Shown here: one piece after another, positions 46,536 to 47,444 of the stretch | Numbering within the stretch: position 1 is the first letter of the stretch | Layout of the letters: each line of letters opens with the position of its first letter | The notes under the pieces: generated by a model | The model's database searches: none | What the model was told of the DNA's origin: nothing | What the model saw: only the letters and a program-made list of their open reading frames with translations | Assembly (NCBI RefSeq): GCF_965641715.1 | Contig: NZ_OZ282453.1 | DNA from: Escherichia coli | Lineage (GTDB): Bacteria; Pseudomonadota; Gammaproteobacteria; Enterobacterales; Enterobacteriaceae | Reading direction: 5' to 3' (one strand) | DNA length: 64,000 nt | Program-made: the position numbers and the translations under genes

Positions 46536-47366
46536 CTACGCGGAGCGAGACGCTGTCGCCCCTGCGCGTGGTGGCAGAGCAAATGCCACCAGCGCCGGGA
46601 TGAGATAAATAAACCAGACGGCGACTTCGCTGACGCTCGGCGCTTCCTGATAGCCAAAAATCCCTTCCATCAACGTGCCAAACAGCGAGTGAGTTGAGAG
46701 CACCTCGCTCATATCAAAGGCGATTTCCTGAAAGTGGTTCCACAATCCGGCTTCATGAAATGCGCGAATGGCACCTGCAGCCAGCCCTGCGGCGACGAAG
46801 AGAATAAACAGGCTGGTCCATTTAAAAAATGCACCAAGATTGAGGCGAATACCGCCCCAGTAGAGCAGGAAGCCGAGCACCACGGCAGTAGCAAGACCGA
46901 GCATTGCACCCAGCGGCGGCCAGATCCCGACATCTTGTTGAAATGCCGCCAGCAGGAAAAAGACCGACTCCAGGCCTTCCCTTGCAACGGCAAAAAAGAC
47001 CATCATCACCAGCGCCCAGCCATGATGATTTCCACGCTGCAATGCGCTATCGACTGCCTGTTCCAGTTGCACTTTGACGTTGCGCGACACTTTGCGCATC
47101 CAGAAAACCATCCAGGTAAGGATCACCACGGCGATCACCGCCACGATACCTTCAAACAGTTCCTGCTCTTTTTGCGGAAATTCGCCGGTGGTTTCGTTAA
47201 TGAAGATACCCAAGCCCAGGCACAACGCAGCGGCAAGCAACACGCCAATCCACATCACACCAATCCATCGGCCTCGCTGGGTACGCTTAAGATAGCTGGC
47301 AATCAAACTGACAATCAGCGCGGCTTCAAGTCCTTCGCGCAACATAATGAGAAACGGAACAAACAT
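46536..47366 (-). CDS. efeU: Ferrous iron permease EfeU (FTR1 family), apparently intact
   Basis: Uninterrupted 276-codon frame starting MFVPFLIMLREGLEAAL with two REGLE motifs (ORF extends 3 codons upstream). Confidence 0.85.
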   Translation of the reverse strand: MFVPFLIMLREGLEAALIVSLIASYLKRTQRGRWIGVMWIGVLLAAALCLGLGIFINETTGEFPQKEQELFEGIVAVIAVVILTWMVFWMRKVSRNVKVQLEQAVDSALQRGNHHGWALVMMVFFAVAREGLESVFFLLAAFQQDVGIWPPLGAMLGLATAVVLGFLLYWGGIRLNLGAFFKWTSLFILFVAAGLAAGAIRAFHEAGLWNHFQEIAFDMSEVLSTHSLFGTLMEGIFGYQEAPSVSEVAVWFIYLIPALVAFALPPRAGATASRSA

Positions 47367-47424
47367 GCCACCCACCCTTAAACGTTTTTCTGAGTCAATC
47401 TATGCAAAGAAAAGTAAATCGCAG

Positions 47425-47444
47425 TGATAGCGATTATCATTACG
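47425..47444. promoter_or_regulatory. Fur-box-like site upstream of efeU
   Basis: tgatagcgattatcattacg resembles the Fur consensus GATAATGATAATCATTATC; ~60-80 bp upstream of efeU start. Confidence 0.5.

Follow-up and report, generated by a model that had tools for sequence, protein, structure and literature searches.

An intact efeUOB operon with a Fur box at the efeU promoter in Escherichia coli, predicted to serve in iron-regulated ferrous-iron uptake

Iron permeases of the FTR1 family work with different partners in different organisms. The partner of Ftr1p is the multicopper oxidase Fet3p, whereas EfeU is paired with EfeO, which has cupredoxin and M75 domains, and with the Dyp peroxidase EfeB. 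The EfeUOB systems of E. coli O157:H7 and Nissle 1917 were reportedly described by Cao et al. 2007 and Grosse et al. 2006, and, to go by its title, the former paper presents EfeUOB (YcdNOB) as a system that is cryptic in K-12 and works in O157:H7. Uptake of Fe2+ at low pH is known from the literature on O157:H7 and Nissle 1917. CpxR (CpxAR) has been reported to repress efeU at high pH. In Nissle 1917, efeUOB is induced by iron depletion, and this induction depends on Fe2+-Fur (PMC3136457). In MG1655, EfeUOB is non-functional owing to a frameshift in efeU, and the system is cryptic in K-12 (PMC2808357).

We analyzed a 64-kb stretch of E. coli DNA, called here the window. The region of interest, positions 46536-47444, is bounded by the final base of the stop codon of efeU and the far edge of a Fur box, and efeU is on the minus strand. 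Based on the sequence, we think it very probable that this region belongs to an intact efeUOB ferrous-iron uptake operon that is repressed by Fur and works as it does in characterized strains. We infer its function and regulation in this strain from its near-identity to those strains. The preliminary description of this DNA had proposed an intact efeU, a Fur box and a frameshift in K-12. All of these have been in the literature since 2006-2007, and genome-wide confirmation of Fur control of efeUOB was published in 2023.

The efeUOB genes and the K-12 frameshift

efeU (46536-47366, minus strand; ATG at 47366, stop at 46536) encodes a 276-residue inner-membrane iron permease of the FTR1 family. 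The longest open reading frame runs from a GTG codon at 47375 to 46536 (279 amino acids) and has no stop or frameshift inside. We took the ATG at 47366 as the start, following the annotation in RefSeq relatives (276 amino acids). The GTG at 47375 was dropped as a start because it abuts an AAGGG element and because the ATG is used in the RefSeq relatives. From our reading of the sequence, this AAGGG (47375-47379, minus strand) resembles a Shine-Dalgarno element, located 9-13 nt upstream of the efeU ATG with a spacing of 8 nt.

The preliminary description had called efeU an uninterrupted FTR1-family frame with both REGLE motifs, and our analysis bears this out. The 276 codons are free of stops, and the product matches the Pfam FTR1 profile over residues 1-275 of 276 (E 1.9e-89; 300.2 bits against a cut-off of 25.3), the NCBIfam EfeU equivalog (331.8 bits; cut-off 255) and TIGR00145 (351.8 bits; cut-off 303.8). 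The first REGLE is at residues 10-14, within the first hydrophobic segment (47325-47339, minus strand; codons CGC GAA GGA CTT GAA), and the second is at residues 129-133 (46968-46982, minus strand; codons AGG GAA GGC CTG GAG). A Kyte-Doolittle profile has six clear hydrophobic segments (residues 1-24, 32-60, 68-94, 146-173, 177-204 and 242-266), and a possible seventh, at about residues 117-140 around the second REGLE, is below the threshold. Six segments plus a weaker one would fit the seven-helix topology of FTR1 proteins. A sequence search of the PDB with EfeU did not find a solved relative.

EfeU in the window is 100% identical to RefSeq WP_000497953.1, a protein of another E. coli. The identity includes residue 221, which is Glu in both and Ala in O157:H7 ATCC 35150 and in K-12. 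Residue 221 is in a predicted loop between the segments at 177-204 and 242-266.

The two partner genes follow on the same strand, in the order efeU, efeO, efeB, with gaps of 57 bp between efeU and efeO and 5 bp between efeO and efeB. efeO (45351-46478, minus strand) encodes a periplasmic protein of 375 amino acids with cupredoxin and imelysin (M75) domains (PRK10378, 772.5 bits, residues 1-375 of 375). efeB (44074-45345, minus strand) encodes a Dyp-type peroxidase/deferrochelatase of 423 amino acids with the twin-arginine motif SRRRLLK (TIGR01412, 617 bits, covering 2-420 of the 420 profile positions). Both genes are full length. Compared with the O157:H7 and K-12 proteins, EfeO is about 100% identical and EfeB 99% identical. 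Codon 12 of efeB (45310-45312, minus strand) specifies Leu in the window (NELSRRR) and Pro in O157:H7 and K-12 (NEPSRRR), and this residue is two positions ahead of the twin-arginine motif.

The operon is flanked by putP and phoH, with pgaDCBA past phoH, as in E. coli, and the best matches for the locus among complete genomes are from E. coli (99.3% identity over 9.4 kb). A scan of 44000-52000 against Rfam returned zero matches at E<=1, and thus there is no known leader RNA or sRNA in that interval. Further gene groups were noticed elsewhere in the window. A two-partner secretion pair (16217-21737, minus strand) consists of a ShlB/FhaC-type transporter of 539 amino acids with POTRA domains and an exoprotein of 1270 amino acids with a TPS domain and haemagglutinin repeats. 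A chaperone-usher fimbrial operon (23128-29752, plus strand) includes an usher of 840 amino acids and a 444-residue protein with a C-terminal fimbrial domain. A long co-directional cluster (1408-15855, minus strand) encodes, among others, an 852-residue protein with two ketoacyl-synthase stretches, a GCV_T-like protein and an FtsX/MacB-type permease; we presume that this cluster resembles the aryl-polyene biosynthesis cluster of E. coli.

The efeU gene of MG1655 is annotated as pseudogene b4490. The preliminary description had stated that the K-12 copy carries a frameshift, and the frameshift is real. Alignment of the window with K-12 efeU contains a single gap, at column 263 (K-12 GATGGATT-GTGTG vs GATGGATTGGTGTG in the window). 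It is a deletion of one nucleotide in codon 36, Gly36 (GGT; 47259-47261, minus strand), where MG1655 is without one of the two G residues (47260/47261). The missing G is present in the window. The K-12 frame ends ...RGRWIV-stop, after 36 residues.

The deletion allele is confined to a minority of genomes. We queried 5382 complete E. coli genomes with the 72 nt of the K-12 allele centered on the deletion and counted matches of at least 99% identity. By this measure the allele is present in 368 genomes. Among the matches listed, all 40 of 40 are 100% identical and come from laboratory-type strains, mostly named K-12 derivatives, for example MG1655, C600, DH5alpha and J53. The other 5014 genomes match the query at 95-99%, the level that an allele without the deletion should give. 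Because 5014 of the 5382 genomes match as the undeleted allele and 368 as the K-12 allele, efeU is normally intact in the species and K-12 is exceptional. With the deletion absent from about 93% of complete E. coli genomes, conclusions about iron uptake that are based on K-12 under-represent the species.

The Fur box and the efeU promoter

The preliminary description had placed a Fur-like site 60-80 bp upstream of efeU, and such a site is found there at a level far above chance. The Fur box, CGTAATGATAATCGCTATC (47426-47444, minus strand), is at -78 to -60 from the efeU ATG and matches the 19-bp consensus GATAATGATAATCATTATC at 15 of 19 positions, that is, with four mismatches. It is the sole site in the 64-kb window with four or fewer mismatches, where 0.18 are expected (mean of 100 Markov shuffles); from the same shuffles, about 4e-4 such sites are expected per 150-bp promoter region. 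Under the 7-1-7 model the box scores 12 of 14 and is again the best in the window, with 0.38 sites expected at that level. The box is identical in the window, K-12, O157:H7 and strain 2018-05-2CC, and these four also barely differ over the whole interval between -128 and the ATG. At 47417-47435 (minus strand), the inverted repeat AATCGC...GCGATT precedes a T-rich run and was scored as resembling a terminator. This element shares sequence with the proximal half of the Fur box, borders a CpxR-like box and may simply reflect the dyad symmetry of the operator. A terminator scan of 46400-48600 gave terminator-like matches at chance level.

Published data from other strains bear on this site. An independent analysis predicted a Fur site in the efeU promoter (PMC3136457). 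A supplement of PMC10164565 lists for efeU_1 a Fur ChIP-exo peak, classed as intergenic, at 1080516-1080528 of MG1655. These coordinates belong to an old version of the genome and are 777 bp lower than those of NC_000913.3, judged from the same 72-mer, and the efeU ATG, at 1081356 in NC_000913.3, becomes 1080579 in the old version. Converted in this way, the listed peak is at -63 to -51, equivalent to 47417-47429 in the window. It overlaps the proximal edge of the Fur box by only 4 bp, and its center is about 12 bp downstream of the center of the box. The same study assigns efeO and efeB to the core regulon of Fur, and their expression rose by log2 values of 1.06-7.67 when fur was deleted in nine E. 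coli strains (PMC10164565).

A candidate sigma-70 promoter (47433-47460, minus strand) overlaps the Fur box. It consists of a -35 hexamer TTGTAT (47460-47455), a 16-nt spacer and a -10 hexamer GATAAT (47438-47433), and its -10 falls inside the Fur box. The candidate scores 8 of 12 in a relaxed hexamer scan. The standard promoter scan of 46400-48600 found no promoter of 9 of 12 adjoining efeU, and promoter-like sites in that interval were fewer than in shuffles.

A CpxR-like box, GCAAAGAAAAGTAAA (GTAAA-N5-GTAAA with one mismatch; 47404-47418, plus strand), is at -52 to -38 from the efeU ATG, downstream of the candidate -10. The window has six CpxR-like sites with one mismatch against 4.6 expected, and the box by itself is therefore not significant and serves as a lead only. 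Its position would fit the repression of efeU by CpxR reported in the literature and the title of Cao et al. 2007.

The variable segment upstream of efeU and alternative readings

The DNA upstream of the promoter differs from that of K-12. The window and K-12 cease to be homologous precisely at the stop codon of putP (50037), and their homology begins again at 47494, position -128 relative to the efeU ATG. The intervening DNA, 2542 bp in the window (47495-50036) and 413 bp in K-12, is essentially unrelated in the two. The core promoter, the Fur box and the CpxR-like box are all within the block shared with K-12. Of 5426 complete genomes, 645 carry the 2542-bp segment, or roughly 12% of E. coli, and O157:H7 is one of the carriers. 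Matches to the segment are 92-97% identical, vs about 99% for the flanks, and it contains a stretch of 28-40% G+C.

Inside the segment is an orphan open reading frame of 442 amino acids (48561-49889, plus strand), with homologues found in E. coli only. It has no match in Pfam, NCBIfam or PADLOC, and its PHROG matches are weak and to families of unknown function (phrog_11707, 4e-19). Direct alignment showed three ungapped repeats of about 62 residues at positions 237-422 that are about 32% identical; self-BLAST did not report internal repeats. One could speculate that this AT-rich segment, with an orphan gene containing three HTH-like repeats, changes the control of efeUOB in roughly 12% of E. 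coli, an idea to which we give little credence. Such an effect might come about through silencing by nucleoid proteins or through the orphan protein acting on the neighboring promoter. If so, the Fur/CpxR circuit of K-12 would be incomplete for strains that carry the segment. A segment of this kind is also found in O157:H7, where the system reportedly works, and for that reason a strong effect seems unlikely.

Another reading is that the operon could be intact and still make no real contribution, either because its expression is mostly off or because E221 impairs EfeU. The off-state could be caused by CpxR repression at neutral or high pH, or by silencing that spreads from the AT-rich 2.5-kb segment 128 bp upstream. 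The CpxR-like box downstream of the candidate -10, together with the reported CpxR repression, would suit the former, and the start of DNA of 28-40% G+C just upstream of the promoter would suit the latter; the one amino acid difference from the EfeU of O157:H7 would suit a defect in the permease. However, O157:H7, a serotype with a system reported as functional, has the same kind of upstream segment, the identical E221 protein is the RefSeq protein of another E. coli, and residue 221 is in a predicted loop. Moreover, efeO and efeB responded to deletion of fur in each of the nine strains examined (PMC10164565). We consider an idle operon improbable.

It is also conceivable that the Fur-like sequence is a chance match in AT-rich DNA, and that iron regulation is indirect or works through another site. 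The box is not a perfect one, at 15 of 19, and the listed ChIP-exo peak is offset from its center by about 12 bp. Yet no other site in 64 kb is this good, at the low chance expectations given above, K-12 and O157:H7 have every base of the box in common with the window, the listed peak does overlap it, and the Fur site was predicted independently (PMC3136457). A chance match strikes us as extremely unlikely. We favor direct repression by Fur of a working efeUOB operon.

Predicted working of the operon and comparison with known systems

In the scheme that we favor, EfeU would be a seven-helix inner-membrane permease of the FTR1 type in which the two REGLE motifs bind iron and pass it on. Its partners in the uptake of ferrous iron would be periplasmic EfeO, with its cupredoxin and M75 domains, and EfeB, a haem peroxidase exported by the Tat pathway, and the system would operate mainly in the presence of oxygen, at acidic pH and when iron is low. 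The most likely site of transcription initiation is the weak sigma-70 promoter that has its -10, GATAAT, within the Fur box. In iron-replete cells, Fe2+-Fur would occlude this promoter, and the repression would be lifted on iron starvation. Because the -10 hexamer sits in the Fur box, Fe2+-Fur presumably blocks RNA polymerase, the classical mode of Fur repression. The CpxR-like box just downstream would fit the reported repression by CpxAR at high pH.

Like most natural E. coli, this strain is predicted to have a functional third pathway for ferrous iron in addition to Feo and the MntH/ZupT-type importers, one that iron starvation and acidity would turn on. The finding matters little past correct annotation.

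The likeness of EfeU to yeast Ftr1p and the FTR1 family (PF03239) is in the full-length FTR1 domain and the two REXXE motifs. The copy of K-12 (b4490, formerly ycdN or efeU_1 plus efeU_2) is at the same locus, has the same Fur box and the same CpxR-like box, and is about 98-99% identical in DNA sequence from -128 through the gene. It differs in the missing G of codon 36, with the stop after 36 residues, and in having 413 bp of unrelated sequence upstream of -128 in place of the 2542-bp segment.

The systems of O157:H7 and Nissle 1917 have the same gene order as the window and are likewise located between putP and phoH. In O157:H7 ATCC 35150, EfeU differs from that of the window at 1 of 276 residues, and EfeO and EfeB are 99-100% identical. 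The Fur box of O157:H7 is identical, the interval from -128 to the ATG is nearly so, and the same type of 2.5-kb segment is found upstream. In contrast to the window, O157:H7 has A221 rather than E221 in EfeU and P12 rather than L12 in EfeB, and its 2.5-kb segment is 94.6% identical to that of the window. In sum, this efeUOB copy departs in nothing from the described system.
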